The notes under the pieces were generated by a model, which made no database searches, was not told the DNA's origin, and saw only the letters and a list, made by a program, of their open reading frames with translations. A stretch of DNA of 64,000 nt from a virus: IMG/VR virus record IMGVR_UViG_3300033802_000281. The stretch is one strand, 5' to 3'. Made by a program: the position numbers and the translations under genes. Below, in pieces: positions 5,243-64,000 of the stretch. Each line of letters starts with the position of its first letter. The first letter of the stretch is position 1.

Positions 5243-5998
5243 TTAACTAGCCTCCTTATTGTTTTTTTTTAGATATGTCTCGACTTCTTTAATATATTTT
5301 CCAACAGTTTGTCTATTAAGTCCGTACATTTCTGCTATCTGAATTCGAGTTAATTTATCTTTCTTGTTTAACTCATACATTTTAAGTTTTTCATCGAAAG
5401 TGAAATACTTTCCAGGGAAGCGAGCTTTTATCATATTTTCCACATGCTCTTTACTTTGCTTTCTTCCAGTTAATGCTCTTCTCATATTCTCAATATGTTG
5501 CGGTGACAATCCACCATAATTTACATTATTTTTACCCTTGCGCAATTCACTTAATTTCTTTCTTGTCTCTTCACTATGTTTAAATCCTTTTAATTTTTTC
5601 CTGATTTTTTCACGATGTTCTAAAGTTATAACCTTACCTTTGTTTGACTCGCTAATTTTTCTTTTAACTTCTTCTGGCCATTCAAAATTATCATATCCAC
5701 CGTGTCGATTATTGAAACCATGTTGCAATGAATCATAGTAGTCAATATAGTATTTTTCTTTTTCATCAAGTTCTTCTATTGAACAGTATTCTAACACTTC
5801 AAATTTAAAGTAATTTTCACCATGTTTATTATAAGAATTCTGAAGATGTTTATTTGGATGACAATTGTATTTTAACCATCTTTTATGAGTTTCTAATCTC
5901 ATGTTTACATTCTTACTTACACCGATATAACACTTTCCATTTGCTGTATTTGTTATCTTATATACACCACTGACAATAGGAGTCGCCGGAACTGGCAT
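5243..5998 (-). CDS. Free-standing GIY-YIG homing endonuclease with NUMOD3 repeats and C-terminal HTH
   Basis: SGVYKITNTANGKCYIGVS...R...E; HSEETRKKLSE NUMOD3-type repeats; RBS GAGGTG before ATG 5998. Confidence 0.9.
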   Translation of the reverse strand: MPVPATPIVSGVYKITNTANGKCYIGVSKNVNMRLETHKRWLKYNCHPNKHLQNSYNKHGENYFKFEVLEYCSIEELDEKEKYYIDYYDSLQHGFNNRHGGYDNFEWPEEVKRKISESNKGKVITLEHREKIRKKLKGFKHSEETRKKLSELRKGKNNVNYGGLSPQHIENMRRALTGRKQSKEHVENMIKARFPGKYFTFDEKLKMYELNKKDKLTRIQIAEMYGLNRQTVGKYIKEVETYLKKNNKEAS

Positions 5999-58699: not shown

Positions 58700-58964
58700 G
58701 CCTAACGGCCTCTTTTTACGGCCTCTTTTTTTGCCTTTTTCCGCCCACCACCTCACCCACAACACATCACACATCACAACCCCTGGCCTACCAATATCTA
58801 CCATATAACACCATACAACACGCAACGCAACATATATAACAGCTACAAAAGCACAAGCGCCGCTAACAAAAAAACTTCGGCTGACTAATTAACAAACAAA
58901 TGCAGTGCCGAAATCTGCTGTAACGTAATTGGCTGTAACGTAGTATTCACGTTACAGCGGCGCA

Positions 58965-58999
58965 AAAAGGGGGAATCAGCGAATAACTCTCCTTTTTTT
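58965..58999. terminator. Bidirectional terminator-like hairpin
   Basis: AAAAAGGGGGA...TCTCCTTTTTTT. Confidence 0.55.
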
Positions 59000-59075
59000 G
59001 TCACGTACAACCAACTTAAAACTTAACATCAAAAATAAAAAATAAAAAAATCAAAAAAAAAGTGTCTAGAATATG

Positions 59076-59103
59076 TTGCATATCTATATAGATATGGTAT
59101 AAT
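59076..59103 (+). promoter_or_regulatory. Early SigA-type promoter with overlapping palindrome
   Basis: TTGCAT-16-TATAAT with TG; perfect palindrome CATATCTATATAGATATG at 59079-59096. Confidence 0.7.
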
Positions 59104-59174
59104 GGGATACAGATAAAGCACATTAAATGCTTATTTGATTATCATATTAAAATAAAACAATGGAGGAATAAAAA

Positions 59175-59816
59175 ATGAAAAAAGTAAAATTGCAATACGA
59201 GAACATACATATAACAGAATCCGGCGTTAGATATTGGGACATTGGGCAGGAGATGGAACTGATTTATATTATCGAGACAACACGAAACGATGAAGACGTA
59301 AAAAATGATTATTCTAACATTATCCAAAAGGAATGTCATTCACTTAATGAATTATTTAAAATCTTTAACGAGTGGCAAAAAGCAGGTTATAAAAATATTC
59401 AAATTGTAACTAACGTCAAGCATAACAACGAAACAATTATAGAAGACGTTTCGGAATGTCTGGAATTGTCTGTTAACAGCGCAGAAATGAATAATCTAAA
59501 AGATGATAGCAAACAGTTACAAAAAACCAGAGAACAAGTCGCAACATATGACGGATTTATAAAGCATTACAAAGCAGAAAAGGCATTCGAAAAGTATTTG
59601 AAAGAAAGAAATGCGGAAAAGAATAAAGATCAAAACGGTTTATATTGGTACGAAATGCGTTTACGTCCATTATCCATTGGAAGCCAGCCGAACGGATTTA
59701 TACAGATAGACGACACAAAAGGCAGACACGGCATTATAGCATATAACAGGCCGTTGACGCAAAATGAAATAAACGAATATGATTTAAGTTTATGGGAAAT
59801 AACATCAATAATATAA
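59175..59816 (+). CDS. Protein with C-terminal DarA_C-like (defence-against-restriction) domain
   Basis: YWYEMRLRPLSIGSQPNGF...GRHGIIAYNRPLT..EINEYDL. Confidence 0.6.
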   Translation: MKKVKLQYENIHITESGVRYWDIGQEMELIYIIETTRNDEDVKNDYSNIIQKECHSLNELFKIFNEWQKAGYKNIQIVTNVKHNNETIIEDVSECLELSVNSAEMNNLKDDSKQLQKTREQVATYDGFIKHYKAEKAFEKYLKERNAEKNKDQNGLYWYEMRLRPLSIGSQPNGFIQIDDTKGRHGIIAYNRPLTQNEINEYDLSLWEITSII

Positions 59817-59840
59817 TATTAATATTGGAGGCATAACATA

Positions 59841-59889
59841 GTGCAAGCCGAGGCCGCCCCGAGAAATCGAGGCGCGGCGCTCAACCTGT
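59841..59889 (+). ncRNA. 3' half of a split twister-sister-like ribozyme
   Basis: GTGCAAGC-CGAGGC-hairpin-CGGCGCTC^AACCTG; lacks the GCAGGGCTAGGCC 5' strand locally. Confidence 0.7.
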
Positions 59890-59922
59890 AATGCAGGAAT
59901 TATCAAAGGAGGATTGATTAAC

Positions 59923-60138
59923 ATGACGAAAACTCGCCGCATCGTTGCTCAAATCATCCATGCGCTCCGTCGTTACGACATCCCGTATATCGTCCACGAC
60001 GAAGCACTCCGTCACGGGATCGCACCATCCGTCGTCATCATGACCGACTGGCATATCATCGTCATTGACGGTTTGCATGTGACCATCGATGACAAGCCTG
60101 TCCGCTCTATCCAATCGCTTATTGATGCTGTCGCTTGA
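59923..60138 (+). CDS. Early hypothetical protein
   Basis: AAAGGAGG RBS after the ribozyme half. Confidence 0.7.
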   Translation: MTKTRRIVAQIIHALRRYDIPYIVHDEALRHGIAPSVVIMTDWHIIVIDGLHVTIDDKPVRSIQSLIDAVA

Positions 60139-60177
60139 TAGCGTCATAAAAATAAAATATAAAGGAGAGTGTAACAA

Positions 60178-60471
60178 ATGTCCATCACGAAAGCAAATCA
60201 AATCATGGCATGCGCCCGTGGCGCATGGCAACGAGAAATTGCGTATCGTCTTGCTAGCGGCGACGCGATCCAGTCCCCGCATAACACGCTGCGCGGCGCG
60301 GCCAAAAACTACCAAATTCGTTACGCCGCCAGCTTCCGAAATCTTGTCCGCCGCATCGAAGCCGCAGGCTTTCGCGTCGTCCGCACTCCGGGTGTTCGCG
60401 GCGGCGAATACAGCGCTACCTATCGCGTATATCCCGCTACAGGGGCGATGGTCGCGGGAAGTCGCAAATAA
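60178..60471 (+). CDS. Early hypothetical protein (GC-rich)
   Basis: AAGGAG RBS; 97 aa. Confidence 0.7.
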   Translation: MSITKANQIMACARGAWQREIAYRLASGDAIQSPHNTLRGAAKNYQIRYAASFRNLVRRIEAAGFRVVRTPGVRGGEYSATYRVYPATGAMVAGSRK

Positions 60472-60518
60472 AACACAACAACAAAATAAAAATAAAAAAT
60501 GCAAAGGAGAACATAAAC

Positions 60519-61046
60519 ATGGAAATGAGAATCTATGTTGCAAATCTGGCCGCATACAATGCAGGCTTTCTTGTTGGCGAATGGATCGACCTTCCGCTTG
60601 AAAAAGATGAACTGTGGTCACGTATTCAAAAAATTCTTGACAAATGGAACGATGGATGCAGACCTTCAGAAGAATGGGCAATTCATGATTATGAAGGATT
60701 TCCGTTTGAAGTTAGTGAATATAGCAATGTTGACAAACTGAATAAGATTGCAGAAACGCTTAACAATCTTAATGAAGACGAAGACGTAATTAAGGCTGTC
60801 TTTGATCTCCTCAACCGTGACGAAGCACTTGAAAAGCTCCAAAATGGAGAATACCGCGTTTATGATGACTGTGACAGCATGGGTGACGTTGCTTATCAAT
60901 TGTATGAGGAATCCGGCAGACTTGCGGAGATTGAAAAAGTTATATCTTCATCCTACATTGATTGGGAAGTAATCGGACGTGATATGGAAATTGAGGGAAC
61001 ATTTAAATACATCGGAAACAGCCGATTTGTTGAAATCATTGACTAA
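60519..61046 (+). CDS. ardA: Antirestriction protein ArdA (DNA mimic, type I RM inhibitor)
   Basis: RIYVANLAAYNAG.LVGEWIDLP...EEWAIHDYEG...SYIDWE.IGRDM; highly acidic. Confidence 0.92.
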   Translation: MEMRIYVANLAAYNAGFLVGEWIDLPLEKDELWSRIQKILDKWNDGCRPSEEWAIHDYEGFPFEVSEYSNVDKLNKIAETLNNLNEDEDVIKAVFDLLNRDEALEKLQNGEYRVYDDCDSMGDVAYQLYEESGRLAEIEKVISSSYIDWEVIGRDMEIEGTFKYIGNSRFVEIID

Positions 61047-61104
61047 ATACAATTTATAACATAGAAAACGAGCGAATTACAATTTAATAAGGAGGATAAC
61101 AGTT

Positions 61105-61440
61105 ATGAATAAATCAATTATTATAGACGTTTCGCCATATATTGCACAACAATGGGTTAAATATAATGGCGATTTAAATAAAAAACAATGGTTAAAAAAC
61201 AATGGTTTAAAAAATCAAGTCATCAATTATATTAAGTCTAAGCTTTGTAATCATAATTTCTACACTTTACATGATGCTACATATCGATTTAAAATATTTG
61301 ATAGTCAAATACAAGATGTTATTATTAACATTAAATGGAGTGGTAAAGAGAACATAGAAATATGGAAAAATCAAGTACAAGAAGACTATATATCTATTTG
61401 TAGTATTTTCGCTGGAAGGTTTATTGTAACTAAAAAATGA
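61105..61440 (+). CDS. Early hypothetical protein (AT-rich)
   Basis: AAGGAGG RBS. Confidence 0.65.
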   Translation: MNKSIIIDVSPYIAQQWVKYNGDLNKKQWLKNNGLKNQVINYIKSKLCNHNFYTLHDATYRFKIFDSQIQDVIINIKWSGKENIEIWKNQVQEDYISICSIFAGRFIVTKK

Positions 61441-61449
61441 TTATTAAGT

Positions 61450-61477
61450 GCAGGGCTAGGCCCAGCCTTGTGAAACC
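61450..61477 (+). ncRNA. 5' half of a split twister-sister-like ribozyme
   Basis: GCAGGGCTAGGCCCAGCCTTGTGAAACC; complementary to the half at 59841. Confidence 0.7.
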
Positions 61478-61533
61478 TATCCGCCAGACGGCGGTGATGG
61501 TCACGGGAGACCACAGAAATGGAGGGGATAACG

Positions 61534-61719
61534 GTGGAAGTAAAGCCCGGAATGATGGTATGGTCGGAAGTACTCGGAGCAAACGTTGAAGTGCTCCGGG
61601 TATATAAAAGCACAGCAACCGTCCGCGTATGGGGGCGCGGGCTCGCGGAAGGTAAACTTATGACCTTTCGGGGTCAACGACTCGACAGTTTACACCCCAA
61701 ACGGGAACAGCAGGGCTAG
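61534..61719 (+). CDS. Small early hypothetical protein
   Basis: GGAGGGG RBS, GTG start; stop TAG lies inside the ribozyme 5' strand. Confidence 0.65.
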   Translation: MEVKPGMMVWSEVLGANVEVLRVYKSTATVRVWGRGLAEGKLMTFRGQRLDSLHPKREQQG

Positions 61720-61779
61720 GCCCTACCCCGTGAAAGCCGGGTTCGGCGGAGAAACCCCGCCGCGGCGCTCAACCTGCTG
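61708..61779 (+). ncRNA. Twister-sister self-cleaving ribozyme (three-way-junction type)
   Basis: P1 CAGCAGG/CCTGCTG, internal loop GCTAG/GCTCAA, P2 GCC/GGC, hairpin CCCG-TGAAAGC-CGGG, hairpin CGGCGG/CCGCCG; matches the TS ribozyme pattern as I recall it; predicted cut 61770/61771. Confidence 0.85.
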
Positions 61780-61818
61780 GATGATAGGGCAGGAAATTCA
61801 ATCGAAAGGATGATTTAC

Positions 61819-62157
61819 ATGAACATTGTGAACCTCACCCCGCATGACATCGTGGTGATCGCAGAAGACGGAACCGAATTCCGCCGCTATCCCGCATCGG
61901 GCACCATCGCCCGCGCCGCATCGATAACGGAGATCATCGGCGAGCTGGACGGAGTTCCCGTCGCCCGACAGCAGTTCGGTGAAGTCTCCGACCTGCCCGA
62001 TCCCGAGCCGGGCACCGTCTATCTCGTCTCGCTGGTGGTCGGACAGGCTCTGAAGGGTCAGCGGAACGATCTCTACGGCGCGGACACGTCGCCGGAAGGT
62101 GCTATACGGGACGCGGAGGGGCGGATCGTCGGCACCCGGCGGCTGGTGAAATATTGA
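61819..62157 (+). CDS. Phage hypothetical protein (NLTPH motif family), GC-rich
   Basis: IVNLTPHDI...LPDPEPGTVYLVS...IRDAEGRIVG. Confidence 0.75.
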   Translation: MNIVNLTPHDIVVIAEDGTEFRRYPASGTIARAASITEIIGELDGVPVARQQFGEVSDLPDPEPGTVYLVSLVVGQALKGQRNDLYGADTSPEGAIRDAEGRIVGTRRLVKY

Positions 62158-62169
62158 GGAGGTATTTCT

Positions 62170-62349
62170 GTGGACAGAATGAAATTCTTCTCTTCCTATC
62201 CCACGCACGAAGCACGTGATGAAGTGATGACGTGGTTTGGGTACGAGAACATCGAACGTTGCCGTTACGTGGATCACTCCAACGGGTATACGGATGTATA
62301 CATTCCCGGCGATCTGGCCGAAATATGGGATCGCTGGGCGCAGGGCTAG
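62170..62349 (+). CDS. Small early hypothetical protein (59 aa; below ORF-track cutoff)
   Basis: GAGGAGG RBS, GTG start, ends CAG GGC TAG inside the ribozyme. Confidence 0.65.
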   Translation: MDRMKFFSSYPTHEARDEVMTWFGYENIERCRYVDHSNGYTDVYIPGDLAEIWDRWAQG

Positions 62350-62404
62350 GGAGTGCGCCGAGAATCCCGGCGCGGGCGCGTCTAGCGCCCTCCGCTCAAC
62401 CTGT
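62340..62404 (+). ncRNA. Twister-sister-like ribozyme variant
   Basis: GCAGG-GCTAG-GGA...TCC-GCTC^AA-CCTGT with two internal hairpins; compensatory P2 change; loop AGAATCC. Confidence 0.7.
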
Positions 62405-62439
62405 GAAAGCAGGAAATATTTAAAAGGAGGATGATGATC

Positions 62440-62670
62440 ATGAAAAAATGGTATGTTGACCAAACGTTTGTCCGCGAGGGCCGGGAGTACGACAGAGGCT
62501 ATTACATCCGCGAGGATGGCGTGATCGAGTGGGCGGAGCCGATTCCGAACGGGGAGGCATACGAATTCCCGATCAACGAATGCTTCCATCCTTCCGGGCC
62601 GCTGTCCAGCGAGCCGGGAGATCCGATCAGTGTCGAGGATGGAGAACTGCTCGGGGAATTGGTAGAGTAG
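62440..62670 (+). CDS. Small acidic early hypothetical protein
   Basis: AAAGGAGG RBS; stop abuts the next ribozyme. Confidence 0.7.
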   Translation: MKKWYVDQTFVREGREYDRGYYIREDGVIEWAEPIPNGEAYEFPINECFHPSGPLSSEPGDPISVEDGELLGELVE

Positions 62671-62738
62671 CAGGGCTAGGGAGACGCCGGAGAATCCCCG
62701 GCGAGCCGCTTATAACAGGCGGCTTCCGCTCAACTTGT
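62670..62738 (+). ncRNA. Twister-sister-like ribozyme variant
   Basis: GCAGG-GCTAG-GGA...TCC-GCTC^AA-CTTGT with two internal hairpins; loop AGAATCC. Confidence 0.7.
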
Positions 62739-62774
62739 GATAATGCAGGAATTATCAAAGGAGGATTGATTAAC

Positions 62775-63428
62775 ATGTTTGTATACCATAATGCAATTTG
62801 GACTGGAAAGAAGTGGAAAGATCAAATATATCTGGAACTCGAAAAAACGAGACGTGGCTTCTATGCCGCATGGGAGGCTGGAGGGGGCCATACCAATACA
62901 GGTTCGGCCCAACTCATAGCAAACGCCGACGGTTCAAAGAAAAAACCGATCTTCATCCCGAAACGCGGACCGAAATGCGGCGGACATGCGTTATTCGTGC
63001 TCGAAGTAAACGACATTATCATTAGTACATATCATCATCGCAAAAACTTCGAGCACTATGTCTATCGAGTCAAAAGAATACGGCCCCTTTCCAGGAGGTT
63101 TTGGGCCGACAAAGACGAGTTGAATTATCACACACCGTTCGAATTGGCGGTGTTCGACATCAAAGATAATATCGAGGAAGGGGAGATTCCTCGAAATATA
63201 TCACTTATGGACATCAATGTTTCCCTTACACACGAAGAAACAAACAGCGTTTGGATTAAATACGAAACCGGCGAAATGGTCGCCGATCTCGAAGTCTTAA
63301 ACTGGTTCCATGAAGGAAAATGGAAAAAAGGAGGTGAACCTAGTGGGCCCGTTGCAGATGCTATACGGGTCGCTACGAAAAAGGCTACCGATTTCCATTG
63401 TCGGAAGCCGTATTATTTCAAGCGCTGA
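62775..63428 (+). CDS. Early hypothetical protein
   Basis: True start ATG 62775 after AAAGGAGG; WEAGGGHTNTGSAQLIA...GHALF...HCRKPYY. Confidence 0.7.
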   Translation: MFVYHNAIWTGKKWKDQIYLELEKTRRGFYAAWEAGGGHTNTGSAQLIANADGSKKKPIFIPKRGPKCGGHALFVLEVNDIIISTYHHRKNFEHYVYRVKRIRPLSRRFWADKDELNYHTPFELAVFDIKDNIEEGEIPRNISLMDINVSLTHEETNSVWIKYETGEMVADLEVLNWFHEGKWKKGGEPSGPVADAIRVATKKATDFHCRKPYYFKR

Positions 63429-63556
63429 CTGGATCGCCATAAAGGAGGAATTAGATGTAACAATCCGCTTCCTCATGCAAACACGATTCCGCCGAGCGCG
63501 GATGGTTTAAATGTTGGAATGCCTTAATAGAAAAAAGATTGAAAGGAGAATGTAAC

Positions 63557-63736
63557 ATGTCTAACATCAACATTTTTAACAAACCTAAATATGTTATTGA
63601 ATTTTATCGTAACCATGATCCTAACATAAAATGGAAATTTTTTGTTCGTGCCAATTCGGAAGAGGAAGCATTAAAGGAGTTTTTCAAGGAATTTAATAAT
63701 ATTAAAATTGAATATATTGACCTTTACGAAGAATAA
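63557..63736 (+). CDS. Small hypothetical protein
   Basis: AAAGGAG RBS; VRANSEEEALKEF motif. Confidence 0.6.
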   Translation: MSNINIFNKPKYVIEFYRNHDPNIKWKFFVRANSEEEALKEFFKEFNNIKIEYIDLYEE

Positions 63737-63843
63737 CAGGAAGTGTAAAGGTATTAACAGACATACCGGATGTTTTTTTTGATATAACAGCAACGTAACA
63801 GACAACGAAATACTCATTTCATTCCATGAAAGGGTGAGAAGCC

Positions 63844-63996
63844 ATGTATAAGTTTTTGACTAAAAGACTTGCTAAAAAATTAGGACTTTGGGTTTCATAC
63901 ACAAACGGAATATTTATTGCAGATGTTCGCGGATACTCAATTGCAAAACATTTTGATTCTTGGAAGTCCGCTTATCGATTTTTGAAGTGCCTATAA
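63844..63996 (+). CDS. Small hypothetical protein (50 aa)
   Basis: AAGGGTG RBS, hand-translated. Confidence 0.45.
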   Translation: MYKFLTKRLAKKLGLWVSYTNGIFIADVRGYSIAKHFDSWKSAYRFLKCL

Positions 63997-64000
63997 AATG

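Follow-up and report, generated by a model that had tools for sequence, protein, structure and literature searches.

Many twister-sister ribozymes between phage genes are followed by a conserved hairpin that may cap and insulate the downstream cistron

Three ribozyme junctions and their hairpins

The window analysed here is a stretch of 64,000 nucleotides (nt) of viral DNA, IMG/VR record IMGVR_UViG_3300033802_000281, and its subject is a series of predicted self-cleaving ribozymes near the end of that stretch, placed between small genes and followed by a second copy of part of one of their own strands. On the plus strand, the letters GCUCAAC(C/U)UG occur at four sites between 59.8 and 62.8 kilobases (kb). 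Judged from the sequence, the interval 61.7-62.8 kb contains three complete twister-sister ribozymes, here called B, C and D, each situated between small phage genes. All coordinates given below are those of the window and, for its own features, refer to the plus strand.

Ribozyme B (61708-61781) carries the canonical GUGAAAGCC loop and belongs to Rfam family RF02681, with a covariance-model score of 49.8 bits at a gathering cut-off of 34. Its predicted strands comprise P1 5' (61708-61714), the L1 strand GCUAG (61715-61719), the L1 3' strand GCUCAA (61767-61772) and P1 3' (61773-61779). The small open reading frame (ORF) upstream (61519-61719, 66 amino acids) ends in CAG GGC TAG, codons that double as P1 5' strand and L1 loop of the ribozyme, and downstream a Shine-Dalgarno sequence AAAGGA (61805-61810) leads to the ATG (61819-61821) of an ORF of 112 amino acids (61819-62157, phrog_30542). 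The next upstream ORF (62170-62349, 59 amino acids) likewise has its terminal CAG GGC TAG within a ribozyme, namely variant C (62339-62405), in which a loop AGAAUCC replaces UGCAAGC and whose strands are P1 5' at 62339-62344, GCUAG at 62345-62349, GCUCAA at 62394-62399 and P1 3' at 62400-62405. It is followed by the Shine-Dalgarno sequence AAGGAGG (62424-62430) and the ATG (62440-62442) of an ORF of 76 amino acids (62440-62670). The stop codon of that ORF, TAG at 62668-62670, abuts variant D (62670-62738), which consists of P1 5' GCAGG (62670-62674), GCUAG (62675-62679), GCUCAA (62728-62733) and P1 3' CUUGU (62734-62738), with the Shine-Dalgarno sequence AAAGGAGG at 62757-62764 and an ATG at 62775-62777 that opens an ORF of 217 amino acids (62775-63428).

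Neither C (62339-62405) nor D (62670-62738) yielded an Rfam match, even at E<=10. Both nonetheless share with the family the L1 letters GCUAG/GCUCAA, P1, P2 and two hairpins, and the internal loop L1, expected between P1 and P2 as 5' G-C-N-A-G and 3' G-C-U-C^A-N, is present in B, C and D alike. Compensatory changes furthermore affect 16 of the 20 predicted pairs, including four P1 pairs and both hairpins, in a set of 58 variant sequences (C, D and 56 relatives), and the RNAalifold consensus of this set recovers two pairs, A8-U61 and G9-C60, by which P2 is lengthened in the crystal structure. The deviation resides in the docking loop SL4, which reads GUGAAAGCC in B and G-AGAAUCC-C in C and D, where the canonical form is G-UGCAAGY-C; length and closing pair are equal, G31 and A33 are retained, and U30 and A34 appear to have been swapped to A and U. 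Covariation thus supports G-AGAAUSC-C as a common loop variant of the predicted ribozyme that the RF02681 threshold mostly misses. Specifically, a scan of 16 related loci with Rfam recognised just a minority of AGAAU-loop copies, and the carriers comprise C and D of the window, loci L022, L046, L094, L121-L123, L128, L129, L133, L136, L137, L144 and L150, and many metagenome loci.

Twister-sister ribozymes cut between C62 and A63, in the 3' strand of L1; they tolerate A7U, and A8-U61 and G9-C60 are paired (PMC5660989). By this published position, the predicted cuts lie at C61770/A61771 in B, 62397/62398 in C and 62731/62732 in D. With the cut at C62-A63, the first nucleotides of the downstream RNAs would be A61771, A62398 and A62732, and each RNA would open with AA and then CCUG or CUUG. 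Self-cleavage at GCUC^AA should accordingly be expected in all three ribozymes and is predicted to leave a 5'-hydroxyl (5'-OH) on the downstream RNA.

Shortly beyond each P1 3' strand stands a second GCAGG (hereafter the arm), starting at 61789, 62409 and 62745 and, at the fourth site, at 59893; in each case it begins 3-11 nt past CCUG or CUUG and is followed by AAAGGA(GG) and an ATG (61819, 62440, 62775 and 59923). With 25 copies of GCAGG on the plus strand of the 64 kb, the chance that three independent sites would each have one within 17 nt is about 3e-7. When folded in isolation in silico, the 3' products carry a hairpin 2 nt from the predicted 5' end. In product B it spans 61773-61793 (CCUGCU 61773-61778, a loop of 9 nt, GGCAGG 61788-61793); in product C it spans 62400-62413 (CCUGU, a GAAA loop, GCAGG; centroid -6.4 kcal/mol); and in product D it spans 62734-62749 (CUUGUG, an AUAA loop, UGCAGG), although the minimum-energy fold of this last product, which starts at 62732, is an alternative, overlapping and longer 5' hairpin at 62734-62761. 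P1 and the hairpin are mutually exclusive pairings, the P1 3' strand being common to both.

Much of this layout had been proposed in an earlier note on this DNA. The ribozymes that it postulated are identified here as twister-sister, B by Rfam and C and D by their L1 letters and covariation. The contact that it described between upstream stop codons and ribozymes is found as stated, with TAG at 61717-61719 and 62347-62349 inside the GCUAG loop (each within CAG GGC TAG) and TAG at 62668-62670 against CAGG at 62671-62674. It had also placed a second GCAGG and then a ribosome site downstream of every cut site. All four of its coordinates are correct and the layout holds at the three complete ribozymes, but not at 59893, which follows only half a ribozyme. 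Its proposal that CCUG has two competing partners before cleavage is borne out by secondary-structure folding, and the second partner that it saw downstream of the P1 3' strand, at the start of the 3' product, proves to be conserved in relatives and to covary with P1.

Conservation of the hairpin among related ribozymes

Relatives were gathered from viral contigs and metagenomes with search patterns that did not contain the hairpin, specifying the ribozyme interior only and leaving P1 and the flanks free; for species genomes, the pattern fixed P1 and left the flank free. A first, broad search pattern had returned 123 matches of which 3 were real, about 97% being due to chance. A filter for at least four P1 pairs and an intact P2 left 278 unique ribozymes, which clustering on the 40 nt downstream reduced to 181 representatives. 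A hairpin was counted if it had at least 4 base pairs (bp), started at the first nucleotide of the P1 3' strand and enclosed a loop of 3-18 nt; this definition replaced a looser one (start within 2 nt, loop of at most 20 nt), which had given 78/94 compared with 58 in shuffles. The MAFFT alignment A1 left-justified the short hairpin segments and was excluded from the pair counts.

By this definition, the hairpin is present in 114 of the 181 representatives, compared with 38±4 when a P1 of a foreign class is grafted and 50±5 when the flank is shuffled. In keeping with these counts, the mean pairing probability of the P1 3' strand in the 3' product is 0.885 among 94 representatives and 0.658±0.019 after shuffling. 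The arm tracks the P1 to which it belongs: CCUG is accompanied by CAGG in 55/63 cases and CCUC by GAGG in 3/3, GGGU by ACCC or GCCC in 33/44, GGGC by GCCC in 8/16, GGGG by CCCC in 4/4 and GGCU by AGCC in 4/6, with single cases of GGUG/CACC and GGUUCUU/AAGAGCC. Arm and P1 have thereby changed together across at least eight P1 sequence types. If the comparison is anchored on the first three base pairs, a fourth pair is present in 58 of 73 cases, compared with 23-35 for slid neighbouring positions, and the identity of this fourth pair follows suit, U standing opposite A or G in 32/32 and G opposite C in 18/26. Both-side changes occur at all five pairs of a same-geometry subset (A3), which was picked for possessing the hairpin and hence illustrates the types of pairs and does not test for its existence. 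As such, the comparative data identify the hairpin as a conserved, covarying element on many predicted twister-sister ribozymes of both loop types, and we regard a real and widespread refolding hairpin as very probable.

These same data bear on the suggestion that the flanking GCAGG repeat has no function and is simply a scar from the recombination or insertion of ribozyme-gene cassettes. The window invites this suggestion, as it is a mosaic of base composition with ribozymes at the edges of its islands, a split ribozyme brackets a 1.6-kb cassette and an exact 37-nt repeat stands at two junctions. Yet nothing would oblige a scar to complement the 3' strand of its ribozyme or to hold a loop distance of 3-17 nt, and a scar would not co-change with P1 in unrelated contigs that represent eight types of P1, which renders such an origin highly improbable.

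The surroundings of the ribozymes are also recurrent. Of 94 representatives, 83 have a Shine-Dalgarno sequence and start codon downstream, the start lying a median 40 nt from the cut, and the spacer between hairpin and Shine-Dalgarno sequence has a median length of 12 nt and is 54% A. In silico, the products hence have the 5' hairpin directly before a ribosome site that characterises RiboJ-like insulators. Arrays of two to five ribozymes occupy 51 of 197 locus strands, at a median spacing of 566 nt, which corresponds to about one small gene. Combinations of P1 and hairpin length are commonly 4/4, 5/5, 6/5 and 5/4. In named genomes, all CAGG-class matches that were judged real belong to Bacillota (Paenibacillus, Tissierella, Butyrivibrio, Clostridia, Halanaerobiales). 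In one related contig (L124, minus strand, ~1066-1147), a homologue of the window gene at 62775, beginning ATGTTTGTATACCA, is preceded by a canonical-loop twister-sister ribozyme with hairpin; gene and junction design are thus the same as in the window (62670-62800), where the ribozyme is of the other subtype, with an AGAAU loop.

Possible roles of the hairpin

The best-supported reading, to which we would give about an even chance, is that the hairpin caps the downstream cistron at its 5' end and insulates it. Each ribozyme would separate two cistrons of a single phage transcript by self-processing. Being complete before the competing arm is transcribed, it would fold and cut at GCUC^AA, and after the cut the whole folded ribozyme would stay attached to the upstream mRNA as its 3' end. 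AA with a 5'-OH, and then the former P1 3' strand, would open the downstream mRNA; at a distance of 3-17 nt, a short repeat of the P1 5' strand would pair with this former P1 3' strand into a hairpin of 4-6 bp, 2 nt from the new 5' end, followed in turn by an A-rich spacer, a strong Shine-Dalgarno sequence and the start codon. As the cut turns P1 into an intermolecular helix, the intramolecular hairpin may capture the strand, render the cut irreversible and release the product. It may also guard the 5'-OH end against attack by a 5' exonuclease, for instance ribonuclease J (RNase J), and, in the CCUG class to which the window belongs, keep the anti-Shine-Dalgarno-like CCUGC off the ribosome site. 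We infer these three roles, namely 5'-OH protection, freeing of the ribosome site and product release, for one and the same element. The 5'-OH product that the glmS ribozyme generates is degraded by RNase J1, and Bacillus mRNAs gain protection from 5' stem-loops or from ribosomes bound close to the 5' end (PMC3997798); by analogy, a block of RNase J by the hairpin, as the earlier note had proposed, is plausible. As for other fates of such a stem, we rejected an intrinsic terminator as well as an RNase III site, the stems being only 4-6 bp long and followed by A-rich and not U-rich sequence.

The role in freeing the ribosome site can be weighed by modelling. When the arm is replaced by A's in 49 CCU-class products, the modelled accessibility of the Shine-Dalgarno sequence falls from 0.71 to 0.43 (p 1.5e-9). 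This loss also fits a narrower explanation, in which the leftover CCUGC is anti-Shine-Dalgarno-like and GCAGG, as a decoy, prevents it from pairing with the next gene's AGGAGG, insulation of the ribosome site being the hairpin's only function. In the 39 products of the GGG class, however, removal of the arm raises accessibility slightly, from 0.595 to 0.647, so that there is no insulation effect, yet the hairpin is equally conserved there; the basis of this explanation is, moreover, thermodynamic modelling alone, and we consider it unlikely.

Further information comes from ribozymes that do without the hairpin. In the CCUAUU class, P1 leads almost directly into AAGGAGG. A class from bioreactor metagenomes has a long, AU-rich P1 (AAAAUAGG/CCUAUUUU, 6-10 bp) that adjoins AAGGAGG and no hairpin (L279, L281, L286, L288, L297, L305, L308, L313, L336, L338, L344 and others), and a marine class with P1 UGGU/ACCA has neither hairpin nor Shine-Dalgarno sequence (L276, L277, L282, L298, L300, L307). 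The median distance of the Shine-Dalgarno sequence from the start of P1 is 12.5 nt without and 26 nt with hairpin, and the mean energy of P1 is -4.45 kcal/mol without and -6.53 kcal/mol with hairpin. Where the hairpin is missing, P1 is therefore weaker and the Shine-Dalgarno sequence nearer, which makes the hairpin an accessory of ribozymes with GC-rich P1 and not a catalytic requirement. The hairpin-less class, in which some 12 nt separate the cut from the ribosome site, fits, by analogy, the mode of protection in which a bound ribosome guards the 5' end.

The dependence on P1 strength is also what would be expected if the hairpin served product capture only, with the arm stripping the GC-rich P1 3' strand from the ribozyme after the cut, hastening release and preventing re-ligation, and with any effects on stability or translation being incidental. 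The observation that the P1 strand contains the arm, which seldom exceeds P1 in length, as well as the frequency of stable hairpin loops such as GAAA and GAA in relatives, is compatible with this explanation. A helix of 4-7 bp between two molecules should, however, fall apart unaided within seconds, and we found no documentation of efficient twister-sister ligation in the literature examined. The fixed order of hairpin, A-rich spacer and ribosome site points instead to a role of the 5' end, as does a type II hammerhead ribozyme at locus L122, and product capture as the sole function appears rather unlikely to us.

Specifically, at positions 4500-6900 of L122, six small genes are set apart by five twister-sister-like ribozymes together with a type II hammerhead (5354-5419). 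The hammerhead begins on the upstream TAG, and the 3' product that it leaves natively opens with the hammerhead's stem I hairpin, after which come an A-rich spacer and a ribosome site. This arrangement favours the structured 5' end as the selected outcome.

A last alternative, also put forward in the earlier note, places the switch before cleavage. The P1 3' strand would have two states, and ribosomes that terminate in P1 or L1 would melt P1, free the strand to the arm and hold the ribozyme off, with P1 and hairpin in competition, so that upstream translation would gate the cutting and set the fraction of transcripts cut. The position of the stops is suggestive in this regard. Among 156 representatives, the upstream stop is the UAG of L1 in 23, overlaps the P1 5' strand in 35 and lies 0-2 nt before P1 in 18, such that the contact seen in the window extends to 76/156 relatives; in a further 35 it lies 3-12 nt before P1, giving 111/156 within 12 nt, and in 45 it is farther away. 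The two pairings are also nearly equal in secondary-structure energy before the cut. The compact packing of phage genes explains the proximity of the stops equally well, however, and the L1 UAG serves as a stop in 23 of the 108 ribozymes with GCUAG, which is not above frame chance. Furthermore, the ribozyme is complete 8-20 nt ahead of the competing arm, and in Bacillota transcription outruns ribosomes; cutting probably precedes the first terminating ribosome, and we regard gating by translation as quite improbable. If it were true, many phage operons would contain a translation-sensing ribozyme junction that gates the stability and translation of the next cistron.

Several results weigh against the hairpin as a cap and insulator. 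The hairpins of the window are singly weak, with free energies of about -5 to -7 kcal/mol and z of -1.2 to -1.9, and their significance comes from the comparative data; many hairpins of the GGG class, for which the lack of an insulation effect also counts here, comprise just 3-4 bp. In uncut RNAs, nearest-neighbour energies, from a model that ignores the structured L1 and tertiary docking, favour the hairpin over P1, and on such modelling the hairpin could lower cleavage instead of following it. The hairpin is absent in about a third of the family, the CCUA class having 3/19 and the marine ACCA class 0/10. Since the strength of P1 and the distance to the Shine-Dalgarno sequence both correlate with whether a hairpin is there, protection and product release are inseparable. 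Finally, the window's terminase is only 24% identical to Bacillus phage terminases, and RNase J in the host is an assumption.

Known systems and the surrounding region

Phages T7 and SP82 have RNase III processing sites between their early genes. There too, a polycistronic phage transcript is divided by structured intergenic RNA into pieces whose ends are structured, but long duplexes and an enzyme of the host are required, whereas here the RNA would cut itself and its 5' structure would arise by refolding. The closest functional analogue is RiboJ, in which a ribozyme, the sTRSV hammerhead, strips the upstream RNA and a 23-nt hairpin is left 5' of the ribosome site; it raises mRNA and protein levels, for which mRNA stabilisation and exposure of the ribosome site have been proposed as effects (PMC6206723). 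In RiboJ, an engineered device, the hairpin was added as an independent part, while the junctions described here are natural and re-use the P1 strand, so that their hairpin forms fully only at the expense of P1. By analogy, the window junction would in effect be a natural counterpart of this synthetic device.

The glmS ribozyme and the 5' stabilisers of Bacillus (the aprE stem-loop, ermC and the hbs ribosome site; PMC3997798) resemble the junctions in that a 5'-OH open to attack by RNase J1 is blocked by 5' structure or a ribosome. In glmS the cut destabilises the mRNA, an outcome that the added hairpin would reverse. Hammerheads before ORFs in fungal and plant RNA viruses likewise fill short intergenic untranslated regions, cut a few nucleotides before the ORF and promote translation (PMC13725137), but they act in eukaryotic cap-independent initiation, belong to another ribozyme class and lack a refolding hairpin.

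With twister-sister ribozymes as described (RF02681; Weinberg et al. 2015; PMC5660989, PDB 5T5A), the present elements share the L1 letters, P1 and P2, two junction hairpins, the predicted C^A cut and a place between phage genes, often in arrays. The described family stops at P1, whereas here a repeat that could capture the P1 3' strand, a fixed spacer and a ribosome site are added, and two of the three window copies have AGAAUSC instead of UGCAAGY and fall below the Rfam threshold. In the literature on twister-sister combined with phage, Shine-Dalgarno or ribosome binding site, we found no description of a downstream capture hairpin, the 2015 discovery paper lying outside this scope, so that a prior mention is possible. 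This class of ribozyme was known already, as were its setting in phages and its position close to other ribozymes; the accessory hairpin appears to be new.

A 2019 review left the function that self-cleaving ribozymes serve in bacteria and phages open and merely suggested polycistronic processing (PMC6765202), and a 2021 methods paper called the stability of ribozyme fragments understudied (PMC8782182). The conserved hairpin makes the suggestion of polycistronic processing concrete and offers a testable idea of what these ribozymes are for. Specifically, reading the hairpin as a cap and insulator predicts monocistronic mRNAs with a ribozyme-capped 3' end and a hairpin-capped 5' end. The junctions furthermore offer natural, compact and sequence-diverse units of ribozyme, hairpin and ribosome site for synthetic operons, and the analysis indicates that the Rfam model misses a common loop variant of twister-sister.

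The fourth site of the window is the 3' half of a ribozyme (59841-59889), with the loop GUGCAAGCC, one hairpin, GGC, GCUCAA (59879-59884) and CCUGU (59885-59889); behind it come the arm GCAGG (59893-59897), a Shine-Dalgarno sequence (59905-59912) and the ATG at 59923. A 5' strand of P1, L1 or P2 is missing upstream of 59893, the ribozyme is incomplete, and it has no Rfam match even at E<=10. A 5' half lies at 61450-61477 and consists of GCAGG, GCUAG, GCC, GCCUU and GUGAAACC. The halves stand in reversed order, the 3' half first, and bracket 1.6 kb that include the gene for ArdA. By reading, their strands are complementary (GCCUU/GAGGC, GCC/GGC and CAGG/CCUG) and both have a GUG(C/A)AA loop; cofolding of the two with nearest-neighbour energies failed to yield the fold of the ribozyme, the complementarity being one of sequence reading. 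The arrangement suggests a circular or recombined cassette, or possibly a permuted ribozyme closed across the 1.6 kb. An exact repeat of 37 nt, 59889-59925 and 62741-62777, covers hairpin arm, spacer, Shine-Dalgarno sequence and ATG of two different genes. As the site at 59893 shares this repeat with 62745 and has only half a ribozyme, it is not an independent case. The repeat hints that the junction of ribozyme, hairpin and ribosome site may move or recombine as a unit.

Islands with a G+C content of 50-66% extend over 59800-60500 and 61400-63400, against a background of about 30%, and the ribozymes and halves lie at or inside their edges. In blastn searches of 59-64 kb against named phages there was no match, and the nearest record (G001) contains neither the ribozyme nor the region. 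All genes of the window are on the plus strand; those of the region include genes for a DarA_C-domain protein, the anti-restriction protein ArdA and small unknown proteins. No terminator-like sites were found on the plus strand of 58712-64000, and the region is consistent with one long predicted transcript. A promoter-like site at 59754-59783 (TTGACG, 18 nt, TATGAT; 10/12 matches) lies about 60 nt before the half ribozyme at 59841. Finally, ribozyme loci among the relatives also contain members of other Rfam families, namely RAGATH-18 (L130:706-767), DUF3800-VII RNA (L124:2550-2639), a group I intron (L094:8321-8664) and GP20-b (L123:11733-11789).

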